From an uncultured Bdellovibrionales bacterium (GTDB lineage Bacteria; Patescibacteriota; Minisyncoccia; Moranbacterales; UBA2206), in the NCBI GenBank assembly GCA_964538685.1, contig CAZIFD010000002.1, positions 77,255-141,254 on the forward strand: 64,000 nt of DNA, written 5' to 3'. The notes below the pieces were generated by a model. It had not been told where the DNA came from and searched no databases. It saw nothing but the letters and a program-made list of their open reading frames with translations. The number at the start of each line of letters is the position of its first letter. Position 1 is the first letter of the stretch. Below, piece after piece: positions 9,560-40,650 of the stretch. The translations under genes were made by a program, and so were the position numbers.

Positions 9560-9564
9560 ACTTT

Positions 9565-22703: not shown

Positions 22704-23958
22704 TTTGGAAAATTTAGTGCTCCTAACAATTTTCTTTTTGCCGATTTATTTGGTGAAAATTAAAATAGGTTTTTTCTCTACTAATGTTTTGGAGGGATTA
22801 ATGTTTGTTTCCTGCGTTATTTATTTTTGGAAAAATGGAATAGGCAAAGACAAAGAAAAGGGTCTTTTTCCAAGAGAAAAAGGATTGATTGTGAGTCTAG
22901 TTTTGATTTTTGGTGGATTGATCTTGGCTTCTTTTCTGGCGCAAAGCCCAATCGTCTCTTGGGGGATTATTAAGGGCTGGTTTCTGTTTCCGCTAGTTTT
23001 CTCTTGGGTGGCAAGACAATCTTTGGGGGAAGAAAAATTTGAACGAGTCTGGAGAGTTTATTTTTTCTCCTCCTTGGCAGTAGCAATAGTTTCTTTTTTT
23101 GGTTATTTTTTTGAAATTAATTTTATCACCTATGATAATCGTCTCCAGGGATTTTTTAATTCTCCTAATTATTTGGCGATGTATTTGTTGCCGGGATTCT
23201 TGGCAGGTCTTTTTCAATTAAAATTTTTCAATCTAAAAAAAGAATTTTTCCAAAAAAATATTCAAATGCTCGTTTTTTTAGGAATTATTTTGGTGGCTAT
23301 TTATTTAACCCAATCTTACACTGCTTGGATGGCGCTTTTCTTAATTTTTTTGGCAATGGTTTTTGTTTTTTTGAAAAACAAAAAAAGAATCATCTTTATT
23401 TCAGGATTATTGCTTGTTGCGTCGCTTATTTTTTTACTGGAAAAGTCAACAGACAAAGCGGGACAATTGTTTACTCTAAACGAGAGATCTTCTTTGGCTT
23501 CCAGAATAATGATTTGGCATTCTGCCGAAAAAATACTGGAAGATAATTGGCTTTTTGGAATTGGTCCGGGAAATTTTCAAAAAAAATATTTAGAATATCA
23601 AAAATATTTTCCTCCGTATTTGGAATGGGCCGTTTCTCATCCGCATAATATATTTTTAACTTTTTGGTTGAGCGGAGGGTTGCCGGCCCTGGCTGGTTTT
23701 TTTGGAATTTTATTTTTTTGGTTTCTGAAACTTAAAAAAAATAATGTTCAATTAAACAAGAATGGTACTTTTTATTTTTTTGTTATGCTGGTTATTTTGT
23801 TGCATGGTCTTTTGGATTCAACTTACTTTAAAAACGACCTGGCGGTCGTTTTTTGGCTGGTTTTTTGGGGAGGATTTATGCTAAAGACTGATTCTATAAA
23901 GCAATCCATCCCGACGGTTGATAAAAAAAAGCATACTTTCATCAGCATTGAAAAATAA
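22678..23958 (+). CDS. O-antigen ligase/polymerase-like membrane protein (paralog)
   Basis: Polytopic, TQSYTAWMALFLIFLAMVF region; same architecture as the upstream gene. Confidence 0.55.
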   Translation: MKKMKKILNLENLVLLTIFFLPIYLVKIKIGFFSTNVLEGLMFVSCVIYFWKNGIGKDKEKGLFPREKGLIVSLVLIFGGLILASFLAQSPIVSWGIIKGWFLFPLVFSWVARQSLGEEKFERVWRVYFFSSLAVAIVSFFGYFFEINFITYDNRLQGFFNSPNYLAMYLLPGFLAGLFQLKFFNLKKEFFQKNIQMLVFLGIILVAIYLTQSYTAWMALFLIFLAMVFVFLKNKKRIIFISGLLLVASLIFLLEKSTDKAGQLFTLNERSSLASRIMIWHSAEKILEDNWLFGIGPGNFQKKYLEYQKYFPPYLEWAVSHPHNIFLTFWLSGGLPALAGFFGILFFWFLKLKKNNVQLNKNGTFYFFVMLVILLHGLLDSTYFKNDLAVVFWLVFWGGFMLKTDSIKQSIPTVDKKKHTFISIEK

Positions 23959-25038
23959 ATTTTCGGCATCAACTTGAACTTCAATTTCATTTAGTTCTAC
24001 AAGTCGTTTTTTTTCTCCGGTTTCCGTATTGACTTTCCAAAAGGTGTCGGTGGTTTGGATTTTTCCGGAATTATAATCGTTGGGCAAGAGAGCATTATTT
24101 GGCAAATCTCCGGGAAGGGCATAAAAAACTGTTTTTCCGTCTTTGGACCAAAGGCATTTGGAGACAAAAGTCGGGATGCCAAGATTTTTATATTTTTCCC
24201 CATTGCTTTTGGCGACCGCCAATTCAATTCGGTGGCCATTTTTTTCATTTGAATGGCTGATTAAAACCCGATTTCCTTCTTGATTCCAAAGATAGTCAGC
24301 ACCGAATTTTCCTTTGAAAATTATTTTTTTCTCTCCATTTAGGGTCATTAAGGTGAAAAGATTGGTTTCATAGTTGGCGTCGGGATTGTTCCAAAAAGAA
24401 ATGAGTCCCGAATTTGGAACAGAAGAAATTATTTGTCCGGCATAATTAAGATCGGTAAGTTTTTTCCAATCACTGCCGTCGGGATTAGAAGAGGAAAGAT
24501 TGGAATTTTTTGAATCGGAGTAAGTATAAATAATCTTGTTGTTGTTTTGCCAGAAGACATTCAAAACAGATTGATTCAGGAAAGCGCCTTTTTTTTGGGA
24601 ATAATCAAAAAAAGAAAATAACGAGGGAGTTTTTCCTGGTTCATATTCTACCAGAACCTTGCTTTTGTCAGGCGACCAAGAAACATTTTTGATGCCGAAA
24701 ATTTCTTTTTCGGAGAGGGTTTTCTTGTTGTTTCCCTCTAAATCAATTTCAAATACTTGTCCGTTTTGAGAGTAGTATATGATGGAATTATTATTTGAAT
24801 TAGAAAGAGTTGGAGCCAAAACTTTTTCCTGAGTGATTGGAATTATTTTTTGATTTGATTTGGAAATAACTTTAGTCAAATCTTGTTTTTCTTCTTTTTG
24901 GGATGAAGAAGAATTTTTTGATTCGTCAACGACAAGCGGTTCGTTTTTTTTGAAAGCTAAGCGGTAAATTCCCCAAAGAAAAAAAGTGGTCAAGAAGACA
25001 ACAGAAGAAAAGATAAATATTTTTTTGGACAACGACAT
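23881..25038 (-). CDS. TolB-like beta-propeller (PD40/WD40-like repeats) protein with N-terminal TM anchor
   Basis: Repeated SWSPDKSKVLV / LWSKDGKTVFY-type PD40 motifs; N-terminal hydrophobic helix. Confidence 0.5.
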   Translation of the reverse strand: MSLSKKIFIFSSVVFLTTFFLWGIYRLAFKKNEPLVVDESKNSSSSQKEEKQDLTKVISKSNQKIIPITQEKVLAPTLSNSNNNSIIYYSQNGQVFEIDLEGNNKKTLSEKEIFGIKNVSWSPDKSKVLVEYEPGKTPSLFSFFDYSQKKGAFLNQSVLNVFWQNNNKIIYTYSDSKNSNLSSSNPDGSDWKKLTDLNYAGQIISSVPNSGLISFWNNPDANYETNLFTLMTLNGEKKIIFKGKFGADYLWNQEGNRVLISHSNEKNGHRIELAVAKSNGEKYKNLGIPTFVSKCLWSKDGKTVFYALPGDLPNNALLPNDYNSGKIQTTDTFWKVNTETGEKKRLVELNEIEVQVDAENLFFNADESMLFFINRRDGLLYRISL

Positions 25039-25049
25039 TTTGTTAATTT

Positions 25050-25895
25050 TTATTTACAACCGCAATTAGCTCCAACGCTGACATGAATATGATTACCTTC
25101 ATCTTTGGTATAATTAGCATTGCAGTCTTTGGCCAAACTAATCATTTCGTCTCCAGAAAGACTGCTTTTTCGTGTGGAAAAATCAACGGCATAAGACGAT
25201 CCTCCACAAGTGCCTCCGTAATGACAAGATCCTTTTTTGTGGAAACAACAATTAGTTTCAAGGTTTCCGGAACATTGAGGCCAATCAGGATGGTCTTGGT
25301 AACAATTTACACCGCCGTTACCATCAGAAATGGATGAGATTACAAATGCTTTTCCTGAAGGAACTTTTTCTTGCATGCAACTTATCAAATCTTTTAACTC
25401 TTGAGAAGCATCTCCAGATTGTCCCGGAACATCACTTGGAACCAACGACACATCATTAGTTAAAAATGCCCCATTAACTGTTGCATGTTTTCCTGCGTAG
25501 TTTTGAGGAGGGAAATTAATATTAATCATAACAAGACTTGGATTAATAATGTAAAGAATTAGCCAGGCTAAAAAAGCTAGAATCAGACCGATAATTGCAT
25601 CAGCAATAACTTCTTTGGCAGTTTGCATAGAGGCATTATTGCCAGCTGAAGTGATATACATAAAAGCGCCGATTGAAATCATTAGTAATGCTGATATTCC
25701 TACCATCCAAAGAGCGATTTTATAAATACTTCCAATGTAGTATTCTAATCCATATACTTTCCCTTTCTCAATAAATTTAGTAAAACCCTCAACTACTGGA
25801 TAATCAAATGGTCCAGCCTCAACTTTGGAAGTGAAGAAATATAAAAAACCACAAACGATAAAAAAGGAAAGAATTATTTTTTTTATTTTAATCAT
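25050..25895 (-). CDS. VirB2/TrbC-like pilin module (signal peptide plus two TM helices) fused to Cys/His-rich C-terminal domain (possible LAS/M15-like Zn-binding)
   Basis: Signal peptide to VEA. TM1 IALWMVGISALLMISIGAFMYI, loop, TM2 IADAIIGLILAFLAWLILYII (TrbC/VirB2 topology). C-terminal domain has 11 Cys and CHYGGTCGG...AVD...NHIHVSV (H...D plus HxH). Confidence 0.4.
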   Translation of the reverse strand: MIKIKKIILSFFIVCGFLYFFTSKVEAGPFDYPVVEGFTKFIEKGKVYGLEYYIGSIYKIALWMVGISALLMISIGAFMYITSAGNNASMQTAKEVIADAIIGLILAFLAWLILYIINPSLVMININFPPQNYAGKHATVNGAFLTNDVSLVPSDVPGQSGDASQELKDLISCMQEKVPSGKAFVISSISDGNGGVNCYQDHPDWPQCSGNLETNCCFHKKGSCHYGGTCGGSSYAVDFSTRKSSLSGDEMISLAKDCNANYTKDEGNHIHVSVGANCGCK

Positions 25896-28599
25896 AGTGT
25901 TGTTTTGCTATGGTTTTTTTAATAAGTAAAAAAGTAATTTTAATAACAAAAAGCAATACAGCGACAGTCAAAATAATTCTAATGAGAAAAGACAAATATC
26001 CTGGAACTTCGGAAATTATGCTGGCCAAAAATTTTTTAGCTTTAGCGTCTTCCAATTCGCTGTCTGAAGTAGTAATTGTGATTTTTGCAGTAGTTGCTAT
26101 TTTTTTCTCATAAAGCCCGTCATAAGAAATCCCCCAGTATTTTGAGAGAGCCTTAACTGTAGCGTTGTCTTGAGAATAAAGACTGCTTACAGAAACATTA
26201 TAAGTTTGTCCATAATCCTTTTCAGCGGAAAAATTAACTGTTTCTCCAAAAACAAGCTTATTGCCATTGATATTCCAAGTTATGTTGTCGGCGTTTGGCG
26301 TAGCGACATTGAATTTAGCTTTGAGGCTCACAGTGGTGTCTTTTTTGGCCTGAAAATCATTTTTGCTATAATCGGGCCACTCTTTATTATTTGAATCAAT
26401 GTAATAGCCCAAAAGACTAGGGGCACAATTTCCTTCATTTTCAGAAACAATCTGGACGGTCGGGTCAGAAACTTCAAATGCTTTAGTTAGATTAACTTTC
26501 TCTCCAGTTTCCTTGTCAATGGCTGAAAGGGAAACGCTAAAAGATTTATTTTTTTCTTGTTTAACTGGAAAATAAGCGGTTTTTGGTGTTTCTGTGGAAT
26601 TGGTGTAGTTGTAATTAATTGCTTTTCCATCAACAGACCAGTTAAAATTAGTGAGATTGTCATCATTAATCTTAACAGCAATTATTTGATTTTTAGCTAC
26701 TTTGCAAATCGGATCATCTTCATTGTTTTTATTGAGGCAAATTTGTTTTCCTAAAGAAAGATTGAGATTGTCATCATTGGAAACTGAGGCCAAATAAGCT
26801 TCTATTTTTCTTTTGTTTAATACTAATGGGATAATCACTTCATCATGTCCCTTTCTTTCCCCGTTATAAGCTTTTTCCGAAACAGTTAATTTAACTCGCA
26901 AATAGGTAGCGTCTTTAAAATTGAGATCAAATTTAAGGTCTTTTATTCCGGCGCCCAGTGTGGAAGTGGAATTGGTTAGTTCGTTTTTTGTCAAAGGATC
27001 TCCCCAAGGACCATCAATAGAGTTTCCTTTCCAGACTTGCCAAGTATAATAAAGAAATTCAGCATCTGTGGCGTCTGGAATTGAAGACGAAACAGTTAAT
27101 TGATCGGAATTCGTGTAAGCAGGGTCGTTGATTGGATTTTTGGGGTCATAAGATAAGGAAACATTAATTTTTTTATATTTACCCCCTCCTTCAGTTGGAT
27201 CAACAAAATTTTGCAAAAGACATTTATCAAAATCATCCAGAGTCATTTTAAATAAGTTCACATCTTCATTATTTTCAACTTCTAATTTGCTACCGGGATT
27301 GGTTGTCTCTGTTCTGCTGGAAAGAACAGAGCAGTTTTCATTTCCAGCTGGACAACAAGACCGATCAGTAATGGTTGCGCCGGTTAATTCATCAGTCAAA
27401 TAACACTCCTCATTGCTTGGAGGTTCGGGCAGATCCGTATATTCAGTTCCTATTTCAAGGGATGTTTCAGTGGTTCCCCCATCTGTTGTTGTGGTTTCTC
27501 CTGTTCCTGTCACATACATTTGCTGAGAGTTGAGTTGAATGGTTTCTGTTTTTGTGGTGGTAACAGTAGTCCCAATTTGATAGCTGGAAGTTGGCGCCTG
27601 GTCATAGGTGGTGGTTTTTTTGGTTACTGTTCTTGTGAAAGAACATCCATCTGGGCAGCTGGGCCAAATTTCGGGAGAAACAACAATCTCTTCATCAGTA
27701 CCTTCAGAAGGATCATCAAAAGCATCATCAGTCAATTCGCATTTATTTTTTGGTAAAGCCCACATAACTTTATATGAAGCGTCATTATAAGCAGTTGGTT
27801 CATAAGAAATTCCCTCTATAACTACTCCTATTTGATCGCCTTCTTGATAGGTCCAGCTAAAAGATTTTTGTCCAAGACCGGAAACAGTAGCTTCATCGGT
27901 TTGTCCTAAGTCAGCGGTATCCGAATCATTGGGATTGGTTTTCCAAAATTCTTCTTCTTCTAGACCGAAAGAATTATCTCCGGTTTCTTTGCCGGGAGCA
28001 TTAGGAAACAAGTGGCGACATTCTCTAAATTCGTATTCGGATCCCTTTTCCATATCGTGAAAAAAACAATGTGATTCTTTTCCGACATTTCTTTGATCAT
28101 CTCCTCCCATAACAGCTTTGTATCCGTCATTGTCCGAATCACTGCTATAGCCATCTTCATATTGAAAATTATCACTGGCAATAATTCTAGCTGCTCTTAC
28201 CTTGAAGTTTTCTAGATCGGAATGGCTGTTTTTTTCCAATTCATCTCTATGACGAAGGTACCAAGTGAAATACATTGAACTACTGTCATTATTGCCAAAA
28301 TAAAGCGGTTCAGCGTTAGCAGTTACTTTTTCTCCGGGAATCGGATTAGTTGGCGAAAAAGTGAGGTAAACCTGCGGGGGTTGCTTTTTATTTTTAGCCA
28401 CATTAAAAGATTGAGCGCTTTCCACTATTGTGTTTTGGTTTATTCCATATTTATTAGCAATGCCGTCCGCTGCTTCTTTGGCAGCATCCGATGGACTGGG
28501 CCAATCAAAATCGGCCAAAGCCTGATTTGAAAGCGGAGAAAGTGTCAAAAACAAAACAAGAAAAGTGGAAATAATTTTTTTAAACATAGTCTTCTTCAT
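25888..28599 (-). CDS. Large secreted Thr/Cys-rich surface protein with C-terminal TM anchor (candidate adhesin)
   Basis: Signal peptide. Internal repeated modules (YFTWYLRH... / LYYTWQVWKG...). Thr-rich tract TTVTTTKTET...TTTTDGGTTET. C-terminal hydrophobic anchor plus KK. Confidence 0.5.
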   Translation of the reverse strand: MKKTMFKKIISTFLVLFLTLSPLSNQALADFDWPSPSDAAKEAADGIANKYGINQNTIVESAQSFNVAKNKKQPPQVYLTFSPTNPIPGEKVTANAEPLYFGNNDSSSMYFTWYLRHRDELEKNSHSDLENFKVRAARIIASDNFQYEDGYSSDSDNDGYKAVMGGDDQRNVGKESHCFFHDMEKGSEYEFRECRHLFPNAPGKETGDNSFGLEEEEFWKTNPNDSDTADLGQTDEATVSGLGQKSFSWTYQEGDQIGVVIEGISYEPTAYNDASYKVMWALPKNKCELTDDAFDDPSEGTDEEIVVSPEIWPSCPDGCSFTRTVTKKTTTYDQAPTSSYQIGTTVTTTKTETIQLNSQQMYVTGTGETTTTDGGTTETSLEIGTEYTDLPEPPSNEECYLTDELTGATITDRSCCPAGNENCSVLSSRTETTNPGSKLEVENNEDVNLFKMTLDDFDKCLLQNFVDPTEGGGKYKKINVSLSYDPKNPINDPAYTNSDQLTVSSSIPDATDAEFLYYTWQVWKGNSIDGPWGDPLTKNELTNSTSTLGAGIKDLKFDLNFKDATYLRVKLTVSEKAYNGERKGHDEVIIPLVLNKRKIEAYLASVSNDDNLNLSLGKQICLNKNNEDDPICKVAKNQIIAVKINDDNLTNFNWSVDGKAINYNYTNSTETPKTAYFPVKQEKNKSFSVSLSAIDKETGEKVNLTKAFEVSDPTVQIVSENEGNCAPSLLGYYIDSNNKEWPDYSKNDFQAKKDTTVSLKAKFNVATPNADNITWNINGNKLVFGETVNFSAEKDYGQTYNVSVSSLYSQDNATVKALSKYWGISYDGLYEKKIATTAKITITTSDSELEDAKAKKFLASIISEVPGYLSFLIRIILTVAVLLFVIKITFLLIKKTIAKQHYD

Positions 28600-28619
28600 T
28601 TTTTTGATTGTAGTTCGGC

Positions 28620-29270
28620 TTATTTATTGAGAAAAATAATATAAGCATCAGTCATAAGTAGAAAAACAATTCCGAATAGATAAGAATAAAAAAAACTTTT
28701 GGTTCTATATGCGACAATTCCTCCAACTAGAGATAGTATTGTTAGGGGGATTGTTTGCCAAATTGAATTTGTAAAAATCCAAAGAGGAATTAAATAAATT
28801 ATAGCCTGAATCGGAACAGAAAGATAGTCGGTTTTTTCTCGGAGAATTGAAAGTAGAAAACCTTTAAAAAAGTATTCTTGGAAAAAAAACAAAAAATTAA
28901 CCAAAATTAATTCATAAAATAGAAAAAAATAAAAATTTTCAGAAACACTTTTGGGAAGATGATAATTTTTTCCAAATGAAGTGAAATTGGATAATAAATA
29001 AATAAATAAAAAAGAAAAAAACAAGGCTAGTAAACTCCAAAGAAATCCAATTTTTTTATTTTTCAAATTAAATCCGAATTCAGTTATATTTTTTCGGAGA
29101 AAATATTTGACAAACAAAAAAGGAACAAGCAATAAGAAGAAAAATTCTTTGGTTAGGTTTTGAAAGAAGTTAGTAGCTGGGAAGAAAGCAAAAAGCAAAA
29201 GACAAGTTGCGATAACTGACAATATAATTAGAAAATTTAAATTTTTACGTAAAAATTCAATCAAGTTCAT
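28620..29270 (-). CDS. Polytopic membrane protein, weak CPBP/Abi-like motif (QEYFFKG), His motifs absent
   Basis: 216 aa, about 6 TM. EExxF[KR]G-like motif only; possibly a non-catalytic CPBP relative. Confidence 0.3.
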   Translation of the reverse strand: MNLIEFLRKNLNFLIILSVIATCLLLFAFFPATNFFQNLTKEFFFLLLVPFLFVKYFLRKNITEFGFNLKNKKIGFLWSLLALFFSFLFIYLLSNFTSFGKNYHLPKSVSENFYFFLFYELILVNFLFFFQEYFFKGFLLSILREKTDYLSVPIQAIIYLIPLWIFTNSIWQTIPLTILSLVGGIVAYRTKSFFYSYLFGIVFLLMTDAYIIFLNK

Positions 29271-29274
29271 TTTT

Positions 29275-29763
29275 TTATGGTTTATCTTTGGATAATCTCC
29301 TTTCTTTGAGAATTAATATGTAAGTAATTATCACCCCGGCTGTTTGGTAGGGAAAAAAATTATTTCCTGGAATAAACTCTGGAAAACTACTGGCCACCAA
29401 AACTAACATTTTTTTTAAAAAAAAACTTATAACTGTTCCACCGTGGCTATTATTAGCTCTGACAATAAGAGTGGAAAAAAACACAAGAAAAGAGATAAAA
29501 ATAGTTAATAACACACTTATAATCCAGAGTGGTCCTTGCATAATGATATCTAATAAATCCTTTGTGATGGAGAGGCAAAGCACTAATCCAAAAACAGAAT
29601 CCATAATCGGATCAATGTATCTGGATAAGCCTGAAAATTCCTTAATCAAACCACCAATCTTCTTGGAAGCATTTAATGGGACCGGGTTATGAACATTTTT
29701 TATTTGATTGTTTTTCTCTCTGGATTTTTCTAGATTTTTTTTATTGTCTTCTTCCTGTTGCAT
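29275..29763 (-). CDS. Small membrane protein of the T4SS-like cluster
   Basis: 162 aa, charged N-terminus plus 3 TM. Confidence 0.3.
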   Translation of the reverse strand: MQQEEDNKKNLEKSREKNNQIKNVHNPVPLNASKKIGGLIKEFSGLSRYIDPIMDSVFGLVLCLSITKDLLDIIMQGPLWIISVLLTIFISFLVFFSTLIVRANNSHGGTVISFFLKKMLVLVASSFPEFIPGNNFFPYQTAGVIITYILILKERRLSKDKP

Positions 29764-29770
29764 AATATTA

Positions 29771-31624
29771 TTAAATCTTCTGTAAGCTTTCTTCTTCCTC
29801 TAGTTCTTTTTTAGCGGCTTCAATTTCCAATAATTGAGCCGGATCGGTAGTGATAATTTGGTCTTCGCTGTAGGAAGCGATTATCTTAATAGCAATATGC
29901 TTTGTACCGGCAAAAAAAATACCTTCTCCAACATTACTTTCCAGAAGCAGAAATTTTTCTTGATCAGTAAGATAGAAAGTTTCGGCGATATAATCAATAG
30001 AAGCTGGTGATTGGCGAAGAAGAAGTTGCATTGAGGAATTAGTAACAATTGGCTTGCCGTATTTGGAGGTCAAAAAATCATTAATGTCCTGGGTAATAGT
30101 AGTGAGACCAGTATAATATTTGCGGCATCTTTTGGCGATTCCAAACAGAAAAGAAGCAGCGTCGTCGTATTTCATCATCACCCAAGCTTCATCTACTATC
30201 ACCAATCTTTTTTGAAGATTGGTTCTCATTTCGTTCCAAATAAATTGCAAAACAGTGTACATTGCCACCGGACGCAAGTCTTCCTCCATATCCCGGATAT
30301 TGAAAACTACTAATTGATTGCCGACAGAAATATTGGTTGCCTGATTTAGAAATCCACCAAACAGTCCTTCGGTATACTTTTCCAAACGAATTCCCAAATC
30401 TTCGCCACCTTCCATATTGCGAAGAACATCATAAAGGTTGGACATAGTAGGAAAATCGGCTTTTCGAATGGAGTCAAAATCAGACTCAGAACTAATGTCT
30501 TTTATATTATAAGTTTCTCGAACGGCTCGGTCTAAAATGGAATCTTCTTCCGGAGTGATGTTTCCAAGCATAATATGGAGAAGTCCTAATATGTTGGCGA
30601 TATTATTTCTAAAAATATCATCCGGGTCCTCATCCTGTCCGAGTTTGGGCAAATCAAAAGGATTAATATGTTGATCGGAAGTTAATGAAATTTTAATGAA
30701 ACTTCCTCCAACTGTTTCACAAAGATGTTTATATTCATTTTCCGGATCAATAATAATCACATTGGTTCCTAGCATTAAAGAACGCAAAATTTCCAATTTA
30801 ACAGTATAGCTTTTTCCAGCTCCTGATTTGGCAAAAACCACCATATTAGCATTTTCCATTTGGAATCTATCAAATATAACCAAACTGTTGTTGTGGCGAT
30901 TAATGCCGTAAAGAATCCCGGTATCAGAAGAAAGAGTTGATGAAACAAAAGGAAAGGTTGTTGAGAGAGGAGAAGAATTCATATTGGTTCCGATGTCTAA
31001 TTCATCATTGGCTAGCGGAAGTGAAGAATTGAAACCCTGTTCTGCTTTAAAAATGGCTTTTTTCGCATAAACTAATTGAGCTTCAAGAATAGATTCAACT
31101 GATTTTTGAAAATCTGACAGTTCTTTTTCGGTGTTTCCAAAAAAAGTTATATATAAACCGAAGCGAAAAAACCTTTCCGTTCCTTGTTGCAACTGATCGC
31201 GAAGTTCGTCAATGTCAGCAATAGCCGTCTCCAGGGCTGGATCTCTGACTAATCCTGATTCTCGTTCCATATTTTGGCGGGATTCCACTTGAGTGGCGCT
31301 TTTTCTGAGAGTTTTTAGGATTTCGTATGTCGGAATAGGATGAATAAACATTGAAATATTCATCGGAATATCAATGTTAATAATGGGAGAGAACCAATTG
31401 CTGTGAAGATATCTCGGATAAGTCATTACAAAAAGGGTTTGAGCCAGAGTATCTCCAATTTGAATAAAATTTGGATTTATTTTGATGGCCGAAGGAGCGA
31501 TTAGATCGGAAAGATTAATCAATCCTTGCTGGTATATTTTTTCGCTTTCTAGTATTTCATTAGATGTTGAAATAATATTTCCCGAAGGATTATTTTTTGG
31601 TTTGGACTTGAAAAAATTAAACAT
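29771..31624 (-). CDS. virB4: Type IV secretion ATPase VirB4/TrsE/ConE family (central plus ATPase domains)
   Basis: IAPSAIKINPNFIQIGDTLAQTLFVMTYP (Gram-positive VirB4 signature). Walker A VFAKSGAGKSYT. Walker B RLVIVDEAW. Confidence 0.85.
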   Translation of the reverse strand: MFNFFKSKPKNNPSGNIISTSNEILESEKIYQQGLINLSDLIAPSAIKINPNFIQIGDTLAQTLFVMTYPRYLHSNWFSPIINIDIPMNISMFIHPIPTYEILKTLRKSATQVESRQNMERESGLVRDPALETAIADIDELRDQLQQGTERFFRFGLYITFFGNTEKELSDFQKSVESILEAQLVYAKKAIFKAEQGFNSSLPLANDELDIGTNMNSSPLSTTFPFVSSTLSSDTGILYGINRHNNSLVIFDRFQMENANMVVFAKSGAGKSYTVKLEILRSLMLGTNVIIIDPENEYKHLCETVGGSFIKISLTSDQHINPFDLPKLGQDEDPDDIFRNNIANILGLLHIMLGNITPEEDSILDRAVRETYNIKDISSESDFDSIRKADFPTMSNLYDVLRNMEGGEDLGIRLEKYTEGLFGGFLNQATNISVGNQLVVFNIRDMEEDLRPVAMYTVLQFIWNEMRTNLQKRLVIVDEAWVMMKYDDAASFLFGIAKRCRKYYTGLTTITQDINDFLTSKYGKPIVTNSSMQLLLRQSPASIDYIAETFYLTDQEKFLLLESNVGEGIFFAGTKHIAIKIIASYSEDQIITTDPAQLLEIEAAKKELEEEESLQKI

Positions 31625-31634
31625 AATCTCTTTT

Positions 31635-32321
31635 TTATTTTATTTCTAAATTTTTAACATCAGCCAATTCAGTATTATTGTAGCTAGTGGGATTGTAGGC
31701 GTTAAAAGAAAGTTCAATCAGTTCTTGGGTTTTGAGTGGAATAAGACTGAGTCCGATTCCGGAAAGGGCAGCGACAATGTGATCAACCCTTTGTAATAAT
31801 TGATTTTTGCAATTTTCAAAGTTTTCTCTTTTAGCCAGGATATTTTTTTGGGGATTAAATGATGCGAAAATTTTTCCAAAAAAACCAACTTCTTTGTTTT
31901 CAATAGGAGAAAAAGGTACAACAATATAGAAAAATTTTTCCATAATATTGGAAACAGAAACTAGTTCATTGATGAATGTTTTATATTCCGAAAGTTGAAG
32001 TCGTAGAAGTTCATTAGACTGTTTTTTTTCTTTTTCTGCAAGAAAATCAGAATATTTTTTTATATTGAGCTTTTTGGAAGAGATTAAAATTTGAATGGGA
32101 AAGTCTAATGAATTGAGAAAATTTTGATATTGTTCAATTATAGCTGTTTGTTCATCGCTGGACTTGAGATCAAAATTAATGGCTGAAACTGCCAAAACAG
32201 AACGAAAAGAGCCGTTTTTAAGAACTATTAAATCTTCCTTTATTTCAGCAATATCCAGATATTTTTGAGTACTGTCTGAGGCTGATTTTTGGGTTATAGT
32301 GTTTGAATGAAGTTTTTCCAT
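31635..32321 (-). CDS. Probable detached N-terminal domain of VirB4 (CagE/TrbE/VirB4 N-terminal-like)
   Basis: SFRSVLAVSAINFDLKSSDEQTAIIEQYQNFLNSLDFPIQILISSKK resembles the N-terminus of Gram-positive VirB4. 228+617 aa is about the length of ConE/TcpF. Tightly coupled between the PrgI-like gene and virB4. Confidence 0.45.
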   Translation of the reverse strand: MEKLHSNTITQKSASDSTQKYLDIAEIKEDLIVLKNGSFRSVLAVSAINFDLKSSDEQTAIIEQYQNFLNSLDFPIQILISSKKLNIKKYSDFLAEKEKKQSNELLRLQLSEYKTFINELVSVSNIMEKFFYIVVPFSPIENKEVGFFGKIFASFNPQKNILAKRENFENCKNQLLQRVDHIVAALSGIGLSLIPLKTQELIELSFNAYNPTSYNNTELADVKNLEIK

Positions 32322-32325
32322 AGTT

Positions 32326-32721
32326 TTAATTTTTGTCTAGAATTTTGGATATTTGTTGAATTTGCTCTTGGGTTATTGATTTCCTTATTGTTTGGCTTTG
32401 ACTTTTCCTTTTTGCCACCACTTTTGTTTTGTTGGGATTGTCTGCTTCCTTTTTCCAAATATAATTTTTTGGTTTAAAGAGAAAAATGATGGATGAAGCA
32501 ATAAAAAATGGCAATGGTTGGTCATTGGGTTTAAAAAAAGCCAATGATCCGAAAATAAAAGCGACAAAAACGACGGAAACATAAAAACCAGCCGTATCAA
32601 GGACATTCCAAAGAACCAAAAGCATTACTCCTCCCGCTGCCAGCCAACCAAGTTGTTTGGCAGTCAGTGGTCCGACGATTCTATCTTCAATATCAATAAA
32701 TTGAGGAACTCTGAATTGCAT
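32326..32721 (-). CDS. PrgI-family (VirB3-like) small membrane protein
   Basis: MQFRVPQFIDIEDRIVGPLTAKQLGWL plus two TM helices. Immediately upstream of the VirB4 ORFs. Confidence 0.55.
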   Translation of the reverse strand: MQFRVPQFIDIEDRIVGPLTAKQLGWLAAGGVMLLVLWNVLDTAGFYVSVVFVAFIFGSLAFFKPNDQPLPFFIASSIIFLFKPKNYIWKKEADNPNKTKVVAKRKSQSQTIRKSITQEQIQQISKILDKN

Positions 32722-32782
32722 AAAAAATTAATTTATCTCTTACTGACTCATTCTAACAGGAAAAAAACTTTCTTTCAATTTT

Positions 32783-33754
32783 TTAATTTAAGTCTTTGAG
32801 ATTGATAATATTTTTTGGCAGAGTTTTTTTTTCGGACAAAAGCATATTGTGAGGGGCGGGCAGTTTCTGGTTTGTTTTTTTAGATTCAAAGGGTAATTTT
32901 TGATGAAAATTGAAAGAAGTATTTTGGACATTGCCAAAGGATGGAATATTTTTGATCGGAGAAGTTTTTTGCCAAACAGTTCTTGAAGCGGGTTTAAATT
33001 CTTTTTGAAATATTATTTTTTTGTTGTCTTTGTCAACCAAAAGAGGAGTTCCTTCATCAAAAGATTTCAGCAGTTGAGATAAATTATTCCTGTCAGAACT
33101 TTCCAGTTTTCTGGGATTCAAAGAATGAAACAAATATTCTCCTCTTTCCAACGAATTGTGAGCGCGATAACCTAAATTAGAGACATAATCTTCAATCCAA
33201 TTCTCAATACTGGGTGGCACTTCTCTTTGTTTTTCTTTGGAAAAAAGATTGTTTCTTCCGATTGGTTGTTTTCTGGTTTCCGGATATTTTTTAAAAATTT
33301 CCTTAATTGTCAATTGAATTATGCTTTTTGAATCAGTTAAAGTTTCTTTTTTTAATTCTTCCTTAATCCAAGGCTCTTTCTGAAAAACAACTTCTAATGC
33401 CGACGATTCACTTTTTGTCGGTGTTAATTTTTTTTCATTCCAATTGATTTGCATTTCCAAAGATTCATTGTAAACAGTAGGAAAAATAAAAAAAATACGC
33501 TTATTTATTTCATAGGCTATACTAGTGCTTAAATTTTCATTTAAGGACAGATTTTTTTGGATAATTTTTGGTAAATTTTTTAATGACTCATCACCCACAT
33601 ACATCAATCCTATTTCTTTAGCTATTTTCCAAGATTTTTCAGGTGCAACATCAAACATAGCCAAAGATTTTTTGATTTCAATCATTGGTTCGGCGGAAGA
33701 CAAGAATGTCCTGACATTTTCTGGAAGTTTTTTTATTTTATCTATATAATTCAT
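32783..33754 (-). CDS. Hypothetical soluble protein of the T4SS-like cluster
   Basis: 323 aa, no TM, no recognisable motif. Confidence 0.3.
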   Translation of the reverse strand: MNYIDKIKKLPENVRTFLSSAEPMIEIKKSLAMFDVAPEKSWKIAKEIGLMYVGDESLKNLPKIIQKNLSLNENLSTSIAYEINKRIFFIFPTVYNESLEMQINWNEKKLTPTKSESSALEVVFQKEPWIKEELKKETLTDSKSIIQLTIKEIFKKYPETRKQPIGRNNLFSKEKQREVPPSIENWIEDYVSNLGYRAHNSLERGEYLFHSLNPRKLESSDRNNLSQLLKSFDEGTPLLVDKDNKKIIFQKEFKPASRTVWQKTSPIKNIPSFGNVQNTSFNFHQKLPFESKKTNQKLPAPHNMLLSEKKTLPKNIINLKDLN

Positions 33755-33757
33755 ATT

Positions 33758-36022
33758 TTAGAAATTGGCTAGATCGGGATTACTTTTAATAAAATTTTCG
33801 TGGTTAGATGAACGAAGCTTGTTAATAAAATCTTTCGCAGCTTTATCATTTTTGATTTCGTAGGCAATATTTTTTATTTGATTTTGTTTTATGCTAGCTG
33901 TCATTACATCGCCATATTCTCTTATGGTTTCAGGTTGAATATTTGCGGCGGTTTCTTTATCCATTCGGGAAAAAACATTTTCAGCAAAATTTTCGTTAGC
34001 TAATTTGCCTTCGTGCGCAAAATAAGCAAATTGAATGTCTTGGTCAAGACTACTTTTATTTGAATCATAAATTTTTGCCAAGTCTCCAAGAGATTGTTGG
34101 ATAGCTAATTTATTGTTTTGACTTTTTTTGCTTCGTTCTAAGAGATCTTTGGCTCCCAATGCGTTTTCTTCAAAGGCTAATCGTATGAATTCAGCATTTC
34201 CAAGAGAATTGCTGCCTAGTTTTTTGGGATCAAATTTATTGCTTTTAAGAAAGGCGCTAATAGCATCTCCATCCAATAAGCCACTTTCTTTGGTATAAGC
34301 CGAAACAGGATCATAATCTCTTATGGCGTTAATAAGTTCTCTGACAACTGAAGTATCTTTTTCGGAAAATCCATTTCTAAAGTTTTGTCTGATATTTTCT
34401 ATGTCTTTGACATTGGCCAATCCTCTGGTTGCCAACTCAATAATTGCTGCCGCTTTTTCAAATTTGTCTCCGGAAGTTGAGAGTTTTCGGAGTTCTTCTT
34501 CAGACATATTTTTAGTGTCATGATCTTTTCTGGCTTCTTCAATTTTTTCACGACTTTCAGTTTCTAACATAGCGTTATATCTATTTCTGGCAGCTTTGCT
34601 ACCCGGAATAATTTCAGAGGCTCCCCAAAAAGCATCTTGTCCTCTGTTGAAACCTTTTCCAACGCTTCGCCCCAACCTTGAAGAAAGAGCGGTTTTATCG
34701 GCCATAGCAGATCGTTTTTTTCTTTCGTCTTTGAATTTAGTGAAAGCATTTTTAAGAAAGTTCCCACCACTAACCATCATTCCCGTTTTTTTCAAGATAC
34801 TTTTAGCTTTTCCTGTTACTTTTTCTGCGCCGGCGATACTCATTTTTTGGGCAATGCCCATTGTGGCCCAAAGAAGAATAATAGGAATAACAAAAAAGGA
34901 TAAAGTGGTTAATAAGCTGATATCAATCTCCTTGCTAACACTAGCGGCTTTTGCTTGCATGCCAGAATAATTCTTTAATATTTTCATCATTTCTATTGAA
35001 ACATACAAACCAAGCATCATAATTGGTCCAAAAAAAGCGTATTTAAAGAGATTGCTCCACCAATCTCTGGCAATTTTTTCAAAACCTGGAATTATATTGC
35101 CCACAAACCCAATCGGAGAAAAAATAATAAGAAGCACTAAAGCAGCACCTCTTATAAAAAGAAGAATGGCAAAAGCGAAAAGAGTTATAGTGAGAATTGC
35201 TAAAAATATTATAGCCATAAGCATTAGCGCTGTACTTGAATAGCCTGGATGGAAAAATTCTTTAATTCCGGAACCATTCAATAAGTCTTCTTCTAAATAA
35301 TTTTCATCACCCAATGTTCCCTGAGCAATTGAATACATAGCCACATTAGAAGCGTCAATAATAACTCTGGAAATTGGATAACTAAAATTAACCAAAAGTG
35401 CCATAATGATCAAAATCAAGAGGATTTTTTTGTAATTATATTTGGCTACTTGAAATATAGTGGCAAAAGCGGAAAATAACAAAATCAGGATAAAAAGCAT
35501 ATTAAGCAAATCTCTAACAATAGCCCACATCTTATAAGTGAATCCGCCCATATCAAGAAGATAACTTAATGCTTTGGCATCAGCAATCCATTTGAAAAAA
35601 ACAATTGCTCCGAAAAAAAGATATTTTACAATATATAAAAAGGGAGTTAAAAAACACATAAGCCAAGTTGATGGATCTCCTGCACTACACCCTAGAGATT
35701 TTTCTTTTGAAGCATACTGTATTTTGTGTCCAGTCAAAACATTAGCTTCTGCTGTGTCAGGCGTCCATCCGCAATCTTGTTTTTTCCAACTTATATTTTT
35801 TTCACAGTATTCTACACATTGTTTAGGAGTAAATCCTTCGGTTCCGTCAATTCTTTTTATTACTCCAAGTGTATCAAATCTAAAATCAAGACATTGCGAT
35901 ACTGGTTCTGCATCGGCTTTAGCTTTATTTTCTCCAAAAAACAAAAACAATCCGCTAAAAACTAACAGAAAAAGAAAAATTCTGAAAATTTTATATTGGA
36001 TTGTTTTTTGAAAAAAACTCAT
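33758..36022 (-). CDS. VirB6/TrbL-like polytopic inner-membrane protein with Cys-rich N-terminal ectodomain and long charged C-terminal tail
   Basis: Signal/TM, Cys-containing N-terminal domain, about 6-7 TM central region, about 330-aa hydrophilic C-terminal extension. Confidence 0.55.
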   Translation of the reverse strand: MSFFQKTIQYKIFRIFLFLLVFSGLFLFFGENKAKADAEPVSQCLDFRFDTLGVIKRIDGTEGFTPKQCVEYCEKNISWKKQDCGWTPDTAEANVLTGHKIQYASKEKSLGCSAGDPSTWLMCFLTPFLYIVKYLFFGAIVFFKWIADAKALSYLLDMGGFTYKMWAIVRDLLNMLFILILLFSAFATIFQVAKYNYKKILLILIIMALLVNFSYPISRVIIDASNVAMYSIAQGTLGDENYLEEDLLNGSGIKEFFHPGYSSTALMLMAIIFLAILTITLFAFAILLFIRGAALVLLIIFSPIGFVGNIIPGFEKIARDWWSNLFKYAFFGPIMMLGLYVSIEMMKILKNYSGMQAKAASVSKEIDISLLTTLSFFVIPIILLWATMGIAQKMSIAGAEKVTGKAKSILKKTGMMVSGGNFLKNAFTKFKDERKKRSAMADKTALSSRLGRSVGKGFNRGQDAFWGASEIIPGSKAARNRYNAMLETESREKIEEARKDHDTKNMSEEELRKLSTSGDKFEKAAAIIELATRGLANVKDIENIRQNFRNGFSEKDTSVVRELINAIRDYDPVSAYTKESGLLDGDAISAFLKSNKFDPKKLGSNSLGNAEFIRLAFEENALGAKDLLERSKKSQNNKLAIQQSLGDLAKIYDSNKSSLDQDIQFAYFAHEGKLANENFAENVFSRMDKETAANIQPETIREYGDVMTASIKQNQIKNIAYEIKNDKAAKDFINKLRSSNHENFIKSNPDLANF

Positions 36023-36035
36023 AAATTAAATTTGG

Positions 36036-37076
36036 TTATCTGTCGTTAAAAACTGCTCCCGGTCCATATTCTCTAACCTCATTGCTAATTTGTTTGGTTA
36101 CACTTCTTCTGACATTGGAAACTTCTCTTTGAAGTCTGTTTTTGATAGCCCCAACTCCTTGTTGAATTGAGCGTTTGATGGCTTGTGTTACGACCGAAGC
36201 TACAATTTCCGGAATTTTTTCGGCTGTTGCAGTGGCATCCATATATAAGCCTTCCGCTTTACTGGCGATATATTGGGTTATGCTGGAAGGCGTAATTACA
36301 TTGCCATTTTCGTCAACAGTTGATCGGATTCCTCCACTTTGTTGATTTTTTTGAATTTCTTTCTTTTCTTCTTTTTTTTCTTCATAAACTGACTTAAGAT
36401 GCGCGTAAGCCAATGGAGCATAATTGATTCCTTCGGTGCATTTCCAAAAATTATCCAAATTCCCATTGGCGAACATATTAGCTCTGTCTGCGTCAGTGCA
36501 AGTCGGCACAGGGGTTTCGGTATTAGTAATATCCTCTACCATAAGACCAAGAGTGTCATCATAGCTGTTTCCGCTGTATTGATATTGATAATAGGATGTG
36601 TCTGTGCTGTCCGCTTGGGCATTTTTAATTAGAGCGAATTGATATTGATCTTTTCCGCCAAAACCTTCATAAGAAAGAAGTGTTTTGGAAACAGAAGCTT
36701 TTCGGTAGCGGCTGGAGCTTCTTCCTTTTGTGATTCCTGAAAGATAGTCATTCATAAACTTTGTGCTTTCTCTTTCTGGAAGATCATATAAATAGTCTTT
36801 CCAATCAGTAATAATGGCTGTTCCCATATGATCAACATCATTTAGAAAGGCCGCTGTTTCTTCAAGAATCATTTGAATGGCGGCTTGCTTGAGGCTGGCA
36901 AGAGTAATTCCTTTAATGGTGTCATAAGTTTCTTCCATGATTTGCTTGGCGATGGCAGCTGCCATAGAATCCCAAGCGTTAACTTTTGGCGTTGATAAAA
37001 AAAATAACAACGAAAACAACATCAGACCAAACAAAGTCGGTTTTTTTGGAGATGTGTTTTTTGAAATAATTTTCAT
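36036..37076 (-). CDS. Secreted alpha-helical protein (candidate VirB5/TrbJ-like minor pilus/adhesin component)
   Basis: Signal peptide (MKIISKN...PKVNA). Helical N-terminal region AAIAKQIMEETYDTIKG...AAIQMILEE. The ORF-track start at 37157 is probably too far upstream. Confidence 0.3.
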   Translation of the reverse strand: MKIISKNTSPKKPTLFGLMLFSLLFFLSTPKVNAWDSMAAAIAKQIMEETYDTIKGITLASLKQAAIQMILEETAAFLNDVDHMGTAIITDWKDYLYDLPERESTKFMNDYLSGITKGRSSSRYRKASVSKTLLSYEGFGGKDQYQFALIKNAQADSTDTSYYQYQYSGNSYDDTLGLMVEDITNTETPVPTCTDADRANMFANGNLDNFWKCTEGINYAPLAYAHLKSVYEEKKEEKKEIQKNQQSGGIRSTVDENGNVITPSSITQYIASKAEGLYMDATATAEKIPEIVASVVTQAIKRSIQQGVGAIKNRLQREVSNVRRSVTKQISNEVREYGPGAVFNDR

Positions 37077-37083
37077 TGAGTGG

Positions 37084-38097
37084 CTATTTTTCGGGGGAGT
37101 TATTTTGAAATTCTTCAATTTTTTGATTAATCTCTTCTGTTTCTGACAACAAACCATATTCTGAAATTTTATTTTCCAATTCTTCGGAAAAAGTTATGGC
37201 GTTTGATAACAAGCCTCCAATTTTGGAAAGATTTTGAATGTCAGCAATCGGGTCGGAAGAATTGGGATTAATATAGTTTTTCATTTCTTGGGCATAAAGA
37301 GCAAAAGACATAGCTTTGATATGAAAATCTACCATTTCTTCGGGAACTTCTACTTCTTTGATTTGTTCAAGCATTTTTTCGCCACTTTCGGAAAGAATCT
37401 CTAATTCTTTAGTGCTTCTGGTTGTGAGCGAAGATATGATTTGCTGTGAAATTTTTGACATCGCGCTGGAAATGTCGGAATTGGAAGTAATCGGCTCGGG
37501 AGAATTGCTGGACATTATATAAAAAATAGCTGCCAGATATTCTGTCATATCCTCCTTTCTTTTTTCAAAAGCTTTCTCTTTGCTTAGATTGTCATAATTT
37601 TGTTCTTTTATTTTGATGTCATCTTTAGAAATTTGAGGGGCTTCTTCTTTAATGGCAGTTGAATCTGAACCTATTGTTTCGTCAATTAGTGATTGCACGG
37701 TTTCTACAGTAACCCCTCCTTGATTCATTGATTCATTGGTCAAATTCTTTATTTTGGCAGTGAGTTGCTGGGTTAAATTATTTTCATCAGATTGATTTGA
37801 GGCATTAGGAATTGATTGATTTTCAGGAATTAATTTGTCTCCCGGAGCCGGTTTTAGAGGATTGTAGCCACTCTGAACTTCGGTTCCGTCAGAATAACCG
37901 TCATTGTCAGTGTCTTTGTTGTGTGGGTCAGTGCCATAAGCCTTTTCTTCTTGATCGGATAATCCGTCTTGATCGGAATCAAGAAAGATATTTTGCAAAG
38001 ATTCAGTATTATTTTCGGCAAAAACATAAAAAGCAAAACTTGCAACAATCAAGCTTGCCAAAATTACAGTTGTTAGTTGGATATTTTTTATTTTCAT
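37084..38097 (-). CDS. Secreted protein with thrombospondin-type-3-like Ca-binding Asp repeats
   Basis: Signal peptide; DSDQDGLSDQEE / DTDNDGYSDGTE repeats; acidic low-complexity remainder. Confidence 0.4.
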   Translation of the reverse strand: MKIKNIQLTTVILASLIVASFAFYVFAENNTESLQNIFLDSDQDGLSDQEEKAYGTDPHNKDTDNDGYSDGTEVQSGYNPLKPAPGDKLIPENQSIPNASNQSDENNLTQQLTAKIKNLTNESMNQGGVTVETVQSLIDETIGSDSTAIKEEAPQISKDDIKIKEQNYDNLSKEKAFEKRKEDMTEYLAAIFYIMSSNSPEPITSNSDISSAMSKISQQIISSLTTRSTKELEILSESGEKMLEQIKEVEVPEEMVDFHIKAMSFALYAQEMKNYINPNSSDPIADIQNLSKIGGLLSNAITFSEELENKISEYGLLSETEEINQKIEEFQNNSPEK

Positions 38098-38221
38098 TTT
38101 TTCTTGACAAAAGTATAACACATTTTTTAGTTCAAAAACAGTGGATAAAATTTGAAATTTATTTAATTTTCTTTTTTATAGAAAATTTGCCAGGAAAAGG
38201 AAAGGTTGCTAAATTTAGTTT

Positions 38222-39849: not shown

Positions 39850-40650
39850 TTATTTGGCAATTTCAATAATTTTTGCCAATTTTTTCCAGTCTTCAATTGA
39901 AAGCTCCTGAGCACGGGTATTTTCCGAGAAACCGATCTTTTTTAGTTTTTTTAAAACGAATTCTTTTTCCAAATGAAGTCCGTTGAAAAGATTATTAAGC
40001 AAGGTTTTTCTTTTTCCTGAAAAGCCGATTTTAGCAATTCTAAAAAAATTTAAAGAAAATTCTTTTAATTCTGGTTTTATTTCGGGTATTATTTGAATCA
40101 CAGCACTGTCTACTTTTGGAATCGGAGAAAAACAATTCTTGGGAACAGAAAAAAGTATTTCCGCTTTCGCATAATATTGAACTGAGGTTGACAAAAGGCT
40201 CATTTTTCCCGGTTTGGCAACAATTCTTTCTGCCACTTCTTTTTGAATCATCAGAATCATTTTTTGAGGCGGATTGGAATTTTCCAAGAAAAAGCGAATT
40301 ATTTTGGAGGTTATATAGTAGGGAATATTAGAGACTAGCTTATAGCTTTCCAATTTTCCACTTTGGTTGTTTTTTAGCAACAAATCCTCAAGATTAATTT
40401 TTAGAATATCCCCTTCAATCAGACTGATATTCTTTTTTTCTTTAAATTTTTTTCTGAGATCGGAAACTAATTTTCCGTCAATTTCAACCGCAATAACCTT
40501 TTTGGCTAATTTGAGTAATTCCTCAGTTAAAATTCCCCGGCCCGGACCCACTTCCAAGACAACAGTAGCCGATTCTAAACTGGAAAAAGCGATAATTTTT
40601 TTAATTATCTCTTTGTTAATCAAAAAATTTTGACCTAGTTTTTCGGGCAT
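39850..40650 (-). CDS. rsmA: 16S rRNA (adenine1518/1519-N6)-dimethyltransferase
   Basis: GQNFLINKEIIKKI...LEVGPGRGILTEEL. Confidence 0.9.
   Translation of the reverse strand: MPEKLGQNFLINKEIIKKIIAFSSLESATVVLEVGPGRGILTEELLKLAKKVIAVEIDGKLVSDLRKKFKEKKNISLIEGDILKINLEDLLLKNNQSGKLESYKLVSNIPYYITSKIIRFFLENSNPPQKMILMIQKEVAERIVAKPGKMSLLSTSVQYYAKAEILFSVPKNCFSPIPKVDSAVIQIIPEIKPELKEFSLNFFRIAKIGFSGKRKTLLNNLFNGLHLEKEFVLKKLKKIGFSENTRAQELSIEDWKKLAKIIEIAK

Follow-up and report, generated by a model that had tools for sequence, protein, structure and literature searches.

A cluster of 12 genes on the minus strand of a 64,000-nucleotide stretch of DNA (the window; positions 77,255 to 141,254 of contig CAZIFD010000002.1) very probably encodes a vertically inherited, chromosomal, nonconjugative type IV secretion system (T4SS) of the kind found close to the origin of replication in most of the ultrasmall, host-dependent Patescibacteria, derived from the MPF_FATA class, in "Candidatus Moraniibacteriota" (class Paceibacteria). 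The system probably serves contact with a host or translocation and not conjugation, and a host-injection function is inferred. The original prediction, made from the letters of the window, had proposed a protein-secretion or host-contact apparatus; this interpretation was supported and coincides with the published view of Patescibacteria T4SSs, which are already described. What is fresh at this locus is the fusion of its sole pilin-like protein with a zinc enzyme predicted to cut cell walls.

The cluster spans positions 23881 to 38121 and comprises 12 codirectional open reading frames (ORFs), as originally predicted. Neighboring ORFs lie a few bases apart or overlap, and the single larger gap in the array is 62 nt (32721 to 32783), between g4 and g5 (prgI). 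The ORFs were annotated as follows, with the basis of each annotation in parentheses.

g1, 37084..38121, minus strand: TSP3-repeat protein, secreted or anchored (Pfam TSP3_bac)
g2, 36036..37076, minus strand: secreted helical protein of 346 residues (signal peptide; no family match)
g3, 33758..36022, minus strand: extended VirB6/TrbL-like polytopic membrane protein (PF19590 TrbL_3, precomputed)
g4, 32783..33754, minus strand: soluble protein of 323 residues (no transmembrane segment; no family match)
g5, 32326..32721, minus strand: PrgI/VirB3-like small membrane protein (Pfam PrgI)
g6, 31635..32321, minus strand: TrsD-like protein, a separate VirB4 N-terminal domain (NCBIfam matches)
g7, 29771..31624, minus strand: VirB4 ATPase, C-terminal two thirds (NCBIfam CD1110 family)
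g8, 29275..29763, minus strand: small membrane protein (hydropathy)
g9, 28620..29270, minus strand: polytopic membrane protein, distantly CPBP/Rce1-like (Pfam Rce1-like, below cutoff)
g10, 25888..28599, minus strand: surface protein of 903 residues (hydropathy and composition)
g11, 25050..25895, minus strand: predicted fusion of a pilin hairpin and a LAS zinc hydrolase domain (PF18895 and AlphaFold2 model)
g12, 23881..25038, minus strand: N-terminally anchored PD40/TolB-like beta-propeller protein (propeller family matches)

The core, located in the cytoplasmic membrane, consists of VirB4 (g7), TrsD (g6), VirB3/PrgI (g5), and VirB6 (g3). The same operon-like array contains the pilin-hydrolase g11, four secreted or anchored envelope proteins (g1, g2, g10, and g12), and two membrane proteins (g8 and g9). 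The 617-residue ATPase encoded by g7 matched the NCBIfam CD1110 family (4.6e-110; 369 bits, cutoff 325) and the Pfam families P-loop_TraG (1.4e-26) and AAA_10 (2.1e-12), contained Walker A (AKSGAGKS) and Walker B (LVIVDEAW) motifs, and was 27% identical to PrgJ of plasmid pCF10 (E 1e-46), aligning to PrgJ residues 227 to 772 only. VirB4 is split, with the N-terminal domain carried by the TrsD-like g6 (228 residues) as a gene apart from the ATPase. Matches of g6 included the NCBIfam families VirB4_plasma (9.7e-10) and TrsD (7.6e-7), positions 2 to 119 of CD1110 (1.4e-7), and a precomputed TraC-like match (PF26593) on a public contig that is 100% identical to window positions 22122 to 35895 and was the source of all precomputed family matches. 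Exact-match searching with the g11 protein led to contigs identical to the window, and the same kind of search with VirB4 had no hit. Thus, the original assignment of a VirB4 with Walker A and B motifs stood, and the Gram-positive N-terminal signature that it had placed within the same protein belongs to a separate gene.

The core genes were compared across related genomes. A scan of one genome per species gave 120 loci with a VirB4 relative, of which 80 were kept and searched by tblastn (E ≤ 1e-5) with the 12 proteins and the flanking genes. The 80 loci were from metagenome-assembled genomes (MAGs), mostly labeled as Patescibacteria lineages, with some labeled only "bacterium" or otherwise. 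A TrsD-like gene adjoined virB4 in 77 of the 80 loci, and in one Paceibacterota MAG the two formed a single ORF of 842 residues (L074:9176-11704; an assembly error is possible), which supports the reading of TrsD as the detached N domain of VirB4. The g5 product matched Pfam PrgI above the cutoff (7.1e-8) and TcpE (1.5e-3), in agreement with the original prediction of a PrgI/VirB3-like protein, and its homologues lay directly upstream of trsD-virB4 in 76 of 80 loci.

The assignment of g3 (754 residues) as VirB6/TrbL-like, supported but not strong, was based on a precomputed PF19590 (TrbL_3) match to the exact same protein on the identical public contig, on topology, and on gene position. About six hydrophobic segments are followed by a hydrophilic C-terminal tail of roughly 350 residues, as in the polytopic, long-tailed protein originally described, and the position ahead of PrgI and VirB4 is that of prgH in the prgH-prgI-prgJ order of pCF10. 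Our own scans of g3 gave weak matches (NCBIfam CD3337/EF1877, 4.4e-4; Pfam TrbL in 2 of 29 relatives), a profile of the 29 relatives had no relevant match among Protein Data Bank (PDB) sequences, and hhalign comparison with pCF10 PrgH returned a probability of 5.6%. The profile searches suggested as a check on the original prediction came out in its favor, strongly for VirB4 and weakly for VirB6.

The distribution of the cluster was that of inherited chromosomal equipment. The VirB4 of the window was 54 to 81% identical to those of the 80 loci, compared to 27% with the enterococcal PrgJ. Identities were 74 to 81% with approximately 40 related MAGs, mostly labeled "Candidatus Moraniibacteriota" (Moranbacteria), and 54 to 60% with Yanofskybacteria, Wolfebacteria, and other Paceibacterota/Paceibacteria. 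Among the closer species, of the Moranbacteria type, about 30 kept the order ksgA-ubiA, g1 to g12, wzy-wzy-GT2, and other Paceibacteria kept a core of ksgA, TSP3 gene, virB6-prgI-trsD-virB4-propeller gene, and dnaA-dnaN. This synteny of cluster and flanks indicates vertical inheritance rather than an integrative element.

VirB4 has been found in 2,417 of 3,035 Patescibacteria genomes, as a clade nested in MPF_FATA, with TrsD as the commonest virB4 partner and with PrgI/VirB3, VirB6, and PF18895/VirB2-like pilins near virB4 (Quinonero-Coronel et al. 2025, PMC12102498). The T4SS locus of Paceibacteria and Microgenomatia adjoins dnaA, dnaN, and ksgA (PMC12102498), and the arrangement in the window (dnaN, 13481-14638; dnaA, 14914-16350; ksgA, 39850-40650) is exactly this published pattern. 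VirD4-like coupling protein genes occur in most Patescibacteria genomes, mostly far from virB4, and VirB8 was not found in most of them (PMC12102498). No VirD4/TcpA, VirB11, or relaxase was detected, as originally noted, among the scanned ORFs of the 64-kb window (those of ≥110 residues, all except five, each ≤161 residues) or in the gyrA fragment at its 3' end. Two of the five short unscanned ORFs encode RnpA and a KH/R3H protein according to public gene calls. The comparison with Saccharibacteria that had been suggested at the outset revealed the same core, likewise relaxase-less (PMC12102498, PMC10633639). The saccharibacterial T4SS of Southlakia is essential for epibiotic growth and lacks recognizable coupling and relaxase proteins (Wang et al. 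2023, PMC10633639).

The pilin-like product of g11 (281 residues) was modeled with AlphaFold2 from an alignment of 32 homologues (mean predicted local distance difference test [pLDDT], 77). The model contained a signal peptide, a two-helix hairpin (residues ~50 to 122, pLDDT >90) that is the pilin module matched by PF18895, a linker without order (residues 124 to 145), and a Cys-rich C-terminal domain of ~130 residues (~150 to 281). The match to PF18895 (T4SS_pilin) scored 26.6 bits (cutoff, 26.6). The VirB2/TrbC-like pilin module of the original prediction was therefore retained, with the correction that it makes up just the N-terminal third of a fusion protein. No other gene with a pilin domain was found in the window.

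The C-terminal domain of g11 had no Pfam match, and its predicted fold is of the LAS (Hedgehog/DD-peptidase, M15) type. When its profile was compared with PDB sequences, Hedgehog N-terminal domains accounted for 16 of 19 subthreshold matches (E about 0.4), and the alignment spanned the HxxxxxH...D...E..HxH residues of ShhN, which bind zinc or act in catalysis. Among 141 sequences of the g11-type domain, H219, H225, D238, H269, and H271 were invariant and E266 was 94% conserved, and the His/Asp/His zinc-ligand and catalytic His/Glu pattern is thus present by alignment to ShhN. The domain is read as a predicted active LAS-type zinc peptidase, for which peptidoglycan would most plausibly be the substrate. 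A HMMER scan of 1.84 billion representative sequences returned at least 291 clusters (50% identity) with the g11-type domain, always in a C-terminal position; the pilin hairpin accompanied it in 123 of 140 diverged representatives.

VirB2-type pilins have a standard topology in which both termini are outside the cell. The enzyme domain of g11 would accordingly be extracellular, with which its many conserved cysteines are consistent. In sister Moranbacteria loci, the position of g11 was occupied by one to three pilin-domain genes of different types, including pilins joined with an SLT lytic transglycosylase domain (Pfam PF01464), pilin-LAS fusions, and short plain pilins. We tentatively suggest, as a doubtful but specific proposal, that the single VirB2-like pilin of the cluster is a pilin-enzyme chimera which, if the hairpin polymerizes, would form a filament or stalk carrying one LAS zinc peptidase per subunit. 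If true, such a "cutting pilus" could digest the host wall at the contact site and open a conduit, with an SLT glycosidase version in sister lineages. No pilin-hydrolase fusion was described in the literature found, coverage of which was limited, and novelty is thus unproven.

A mechanism can be proposed for the assembled system. The VirB4/TrsD hexamer would dock on VirB3 and VirB6 and pull the two-helix pilin domain of g11 out of the membrane, so that a short extracellular tube or stalk could assemble. With the ends of the hairpin facing outward, the hydrolase domain would be displayed outside the cell, where it might cut peptide links in peptidoglycan of the cell's own wall, the wall of the host, or both. 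The TSP3, propeller, and 903-residue surface proteins may form a wall-spanning or adhesive part. The apparatus would then move macromolecules between epibiont and host, by effector export and/or uptake of host material, and not plasmid DNA. A pilus has been proposed as a conduit (PMC12857230), tubular structures are reported at a parasite-host interface (bioRxiv 10.64898/2026.06.21.733656), and reviews regard the role as unknown, with effector delivery or host-molecule uptake via a pilus-like conduit as hypotheses (PMC11665869, PMC12857230).

The direction of transport bears on the alternative that best survived, namely, that the cluster encodes a nucleic acid uptake machine, comparable to ComB of Helicobacter pylori or the archaeal Ced system, which imports DNA or RNA from the host to obtain nucleotides and does not export protein. 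The VirB4 of the window also matched the archaeal DNA-import ATPases CedB (1.3e-11) and CedD (9e-5), although the CedB match was far weaker than the match to the conjugative CD1110 family. The lack of an adjacent coupling protein or relaxase and the presence of a PNPase gene in the window are in line with uptake, as are published speculation on nucleotide supply by T4SSs (PMC11665869) and the association of T4SS-like tubes with host RNA acquisition (2026 preprint, bioRxiv 10.64898/2026.06.21.733656). Based on the weak CedB/CedD similarity and this literature, an import direction is plausible. We regard a dedicated uptake machine as possible, if less than likely; it would be a variant of the nonconjugative T4SS proposed here, the same machine run in the opposite direction, and not a true alternative to it.

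The remaining genes of the array encode accessory and surface proteins. The g1 product matched Pfam TSP3_bac (2.7e-16), confirming the predicted TSP3-like repeats (Ca-binding type), and has one N-terminal hydrophobic segment and a helical C-terminal half; its start is likely the ATG at 38097. A g1 homologue preceded virB6 in 51 of the 80 loci, which are of Paceibacteria. The helical secreted protein anticipated in the original prediction corresponds to g2, which is mostly alpha-helical, has a signal peptide ending VNA|W, and contains conserved motifs; it had no Pfam, NCBIfam, or PDB match. The AlphaFold2 model of g2, a candidate for a VirB5- or VirB8-like protein (43-sequence alignment; mean pLDDT, 50; predicted template modeling score, 0.23) was unusable, and the public annotation of g2 begins at an internal Met. 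The g12 product, with one N-terminal hydrophobic segment, matched eIF2A and DUF5050 propeller families, and PD40 was matched in 6 of 10 relatives (best, 4e-6), as expected of the TolB-like propeller first proposed. In 54 of 80 loci, some of them from Paceibacteria other than Moranbacteria, a propeller gene was located downstream of virB4.

A core of P181..N185-W186..D189..G195 was conserved in g4, which has no transmembrane segment and no Pfam, NCBIfam, or PDB profile match and was found in 39 of 80 loci, invariably between virB6 and prgI. The 903-residue g10 protein begins with a signal peptide, is rich in Thr in its middle part, and is anchored in the membrane by its C terminus; it had no Pfam or PDB profile match. 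It had been described as an anchored Thr/Cys-rich protein, and its composition agreed for Thr (9.3%) and not for Cys (1.4%). It was present in 41 of 80 loci, invariably downstream of virB4, with 45 invariant columns among 29 relatives. A ParB nuclease match (E 0.014) in the PDB profile search of g10 and g4 fell within a low-complexity Thr-rich stretch and was not credible.

The small membrane protein g8 has a hydrophilic N terminus and two to three hydrophobic segments, with no family match in Pfam, NCBIfam, or PDB profiles. It was considered as a second pilin, and this was rejected when the pilin hidden Markov model gave no match. In one Moranbacteria-type MAG, VirB4 and a g8 homologue formed a single ORF of 779 residues (L013:10001-12340; an assembly error is possible), hinting that g8 works with VirB4. 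Five hydrophobic segments were predicted in g9, whose Pfam Rce1-like match (0.019) was below the cutoff; a role as a pilin-processing CPBP protease was rejected because the EExxxR and FxxxH/HxxxN motifs were not conserved in 36 relatives. A Pfam scan of 54 relatives of g2, g4, g8, g10, and g12 matched only beta-propeller families, in g12.

The accessory genes frame a second alternative, in which only g3 to g7 are the T4SS core, g1, g2, and g8 to g12 are unrelated co-oriented envelope genes, and g11 is a membrane-anchored autolysin acting on the cell's own wall. The absence of family matches for g2, g4, g8, g9, and g10 is compatible with this reading, as is their distribution at tblastn sensitivity: g2, g4, g9, and g10 were found only in loci with VirB4 identities of 62 to 81% and g8 only in those with identities of ≥73%, the loci with these five genes being mostly labeled Moraniibacteriota (for g2, 30 of 80 loci). 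A two-helix hairpin can also be a plain anchor. However, the genes are tightly packed, with overlapping stops and starts; the 12-gene order recurs in about 30 species; the propeller gene is beside virB4 beyond Moranbacteria; the VirB4-g8 ORF joins one of these genes to the core; and the association of the hydrolase with the T4SS pilin domain in the great majority of diverged representatives points to a T4SS-linked role. We therefore consider a core limited to g3 to g7 improbable.

Several points weigh against the T4SS proposed here or parts of it. The VirB6 match of g3 was weak in our own scans, no VirB8-like (NTF2-fold) component was matched among the 12 proteins in Pfam, NCBIfam, or PDB profiles, and the pilin match of g11 sits exactly on the Pfam gathering threshold. 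A 281-residue pilin bearing a globular domain may not polymerize, in which case the hairpin would be a mere membrane anchor. The membership of g8 to g10 in the system follows from synteny only. The genome may encode a VirD4-like coupling protein outside the window, as its absence holds for these 64 kb. Function has been demonstrated in no Paceibacteria, and transport direction and cargo are unknown even in Saccharibacteria (PMC11665869).

The surroundings of the cluster are core chromosome, with pilB, genes of the ruvA/B/C region, PBP1, dnaN, dnaA, and an rnpA/yidC block, and with comM, lspA, pnp, pcrA, ftsH, tilS, gmk, and gyrA elsewhere in the window. The PilB ATPase noted at the start of the window was verified (T2SSE, 8.7e-103). 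Cell surface polysaccharide genes and two Wzy-like genes abut g12, and ubiA and ksgA abut g1. GC content (~0.32 to 0.38) was equal within the cluster and its flanks. The cluster borders, proposed as a place to look for mobile-element boundaries, had none: no tRNA, integrase, or att-like repeat was found there, the repeats detected were AT-rich imperfect matches, and the same flanking genes recurred in the approximately 30 related species. A tyrosine recombinase (53195-54172, plus strand; Phage_integrase, 1.1e-42, with a SAM-like N domain, an Xer-type domain pair) lies ~15 kb from the cluster and directly precedes the genes for tRNA-Val(gac) and tRNA-Met(cat) (region 53195-54368). It is most likely XerC/D, but a tRNA-adjacent integrase could be the sign of a hotspot for integration.

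An integrated conjugative element or its decayed remnant, with relaxase, coupling protein, and integrase outside the window or lost, would account for this recombinase, for the pCF10-like VirB6-VirB3-VirB4 order, and for the definition of the VirB4, PrgI, and TrsD families on conjugative plasmids and integrative conjugative elements, but it is highly improbable given the synteny of cluster and flanks, VirB4 identities that track taxonomy, the housekeeping genes (ksgA, comM, lspA, pnp, and pcrA) that lie between the cluster and a recombinase with an Xer-type domain pair, the lack of a GC anomaly or flanking repeats, and the presence of a relaxase near only 15 of 2,474 Patescibacteria virB4 genes (PMC12102498).

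Other features of the cluster and its neighborhood were observed. The gap between g4 and prgI contains a promoter-like TTGAAA-17-TAGAAT with an extended TG (32750-32778, minus strand) that may drive prgI-trsD-virB4; the regional frequency of such matches did not exceed that in shuffled sequence, and a promoter and terminator scan of the cluster gave no matches above shuffled-sequence counts. The 3' ends of g12 and a convergent Wzy-like gene (22678-23958) overlap by 78 nt (23881-23958), and the overlap is identical in public gene calls on the 100% identical contig. GC skew was strongly positive to the right of dnaA/dnaN (0.15 to 0.24 at 16 to 24 kb), which fits an oriC at ~13 to 17 kb; the 14-kb T4SS operon, on the minus strand ~8 kb from this putative oriC, would be transcribed head-on to replication.

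Further putative wall-active and surface proteins were encoded in the window. A G5, DUF348, and DPBB (RpfB/YabE-like) wall-active protein (40651-41607, minus strand) lies by ksgA and is kept at the edge of the Moranbacteria locus, and another ORF (51751-52800, minus strand) encodes two LysM domains and a wall-active CHAP amidase or peptidase. Four genes form a block at 6576-10491 (plus strand). The first encodes a membrane protein of the 7TM_transglut family (4.2e-28), and the other three encode ATP-grasp enzymes, namely, an ATPgrasp_ST protein (9.3e-70) whose tail is Zn_protease-like, a YheCD/TTL-like enzyme, and RimK (1.8e-25); the predicted products look like a peptide-ligase or modification system. 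A 619-residue protein (3277-5136, plus strand) that combines three lamin-tail domains (LTD, 1.9e-46) with a PKD domain, and whose gene lies beside that of a bPH_2 membrane protein, is probably also located at the surface. No Pfam family was matched at E ≤ 0.001 by two further ORFs, of 350 and 328 residues (45062-46114 and 54426-55412, both minus strand).

The Patescibacteria T4SS is among the few machines shown to be essential to the epibiotic lifestyle of a very large, mostly uncultivated radiation. The kind of system found here is not new; the locus supplies a clean example from Moranbacteria that is syntenic throughout and has a defined set of 12 genes. It also shows that a pilin-like subunit can be joined covalently to enzymes predicted to cut cell walls. 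This link suggests a testable idea of how a monoderm epibiont might breach the wall of its host, and the soluble domain of g11 (~150 to 281) is open to expression and assay without cultivation of the organism.

Compared with known systems, the cluster is most like the described Patescibacteria T4SSs (PMC12102498; "Candidatus Southlakia epibionticum" SEML1_0006-0019, PMC10633639), with which it shares an MPF_FATA-type VirB4, a separate TrsD, PrgI/VirB3, VirB6, and a VirB2-like PF18895 pilin beside virB4, no relaxase or coupling protein nearby, and a chromosomal position near dnaA, dnaN, and ksgA. The saccharibacterial locus has an array of six short pilins, and its peptidase and lysozyme are encoded by genes of their own, whereas here one pilin-domain gene bears the hydrolase and the accessory genes g2, g4, g8, g9, and g10 are restricted to Moranbacteria. 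The Prg/Pcf system of Enterococcus faecalis pCF10, the MPF_FATA prototype, has the same order of PrgH (VirB6), PrgI (VirB3), and PrgJ (VirB4) followed by a cell wall hydrolase, and the same monoderm architecture without VirB7, VirB9, and VirB10. It differs in having PcfC (VirD4), the relaxase PcfG, the VirB8-like PrgL, LPXTG adhesins, no pilin, and a single-polypeptide VirB4, whereas the window has a split VirB4 and a pilin-like protein, and no coupling protein, relaxase, or recognizable VirB8 was found in it.

For the g11 domain, the closest known counterparts are LAS zinc hydrolases, such as the M15-type DD-peptidase of Streptomyces albus (PDB 1lbu) and the Hedgehog N domain, to which sequence similarity was not significant (E about 0.4). 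Relative to these, the g11 domain has additional conserved cysteines (C173, C208, C217, C224, C258, C278, and C280), an insertion that separates its His ligand from its Asp ligand, and a junction to a T4SS pilin hairpin. The VirB1/PrgK/TraG-type hydrolases are similar in being wall-degrading enzymes inside a T4SS operon, and the fold of VirB1 is the SLT domain that is fused to the same pilin hairpin in sister Moranbacteria loci. The enzyme of the window is a predicted peptidase and not a glycosidase, an analogue of VirB1 rather than a homologue, and it differs from the VirB1/PrgK/TraG-type hydrolases in being covalently joined to a pilin-like module.

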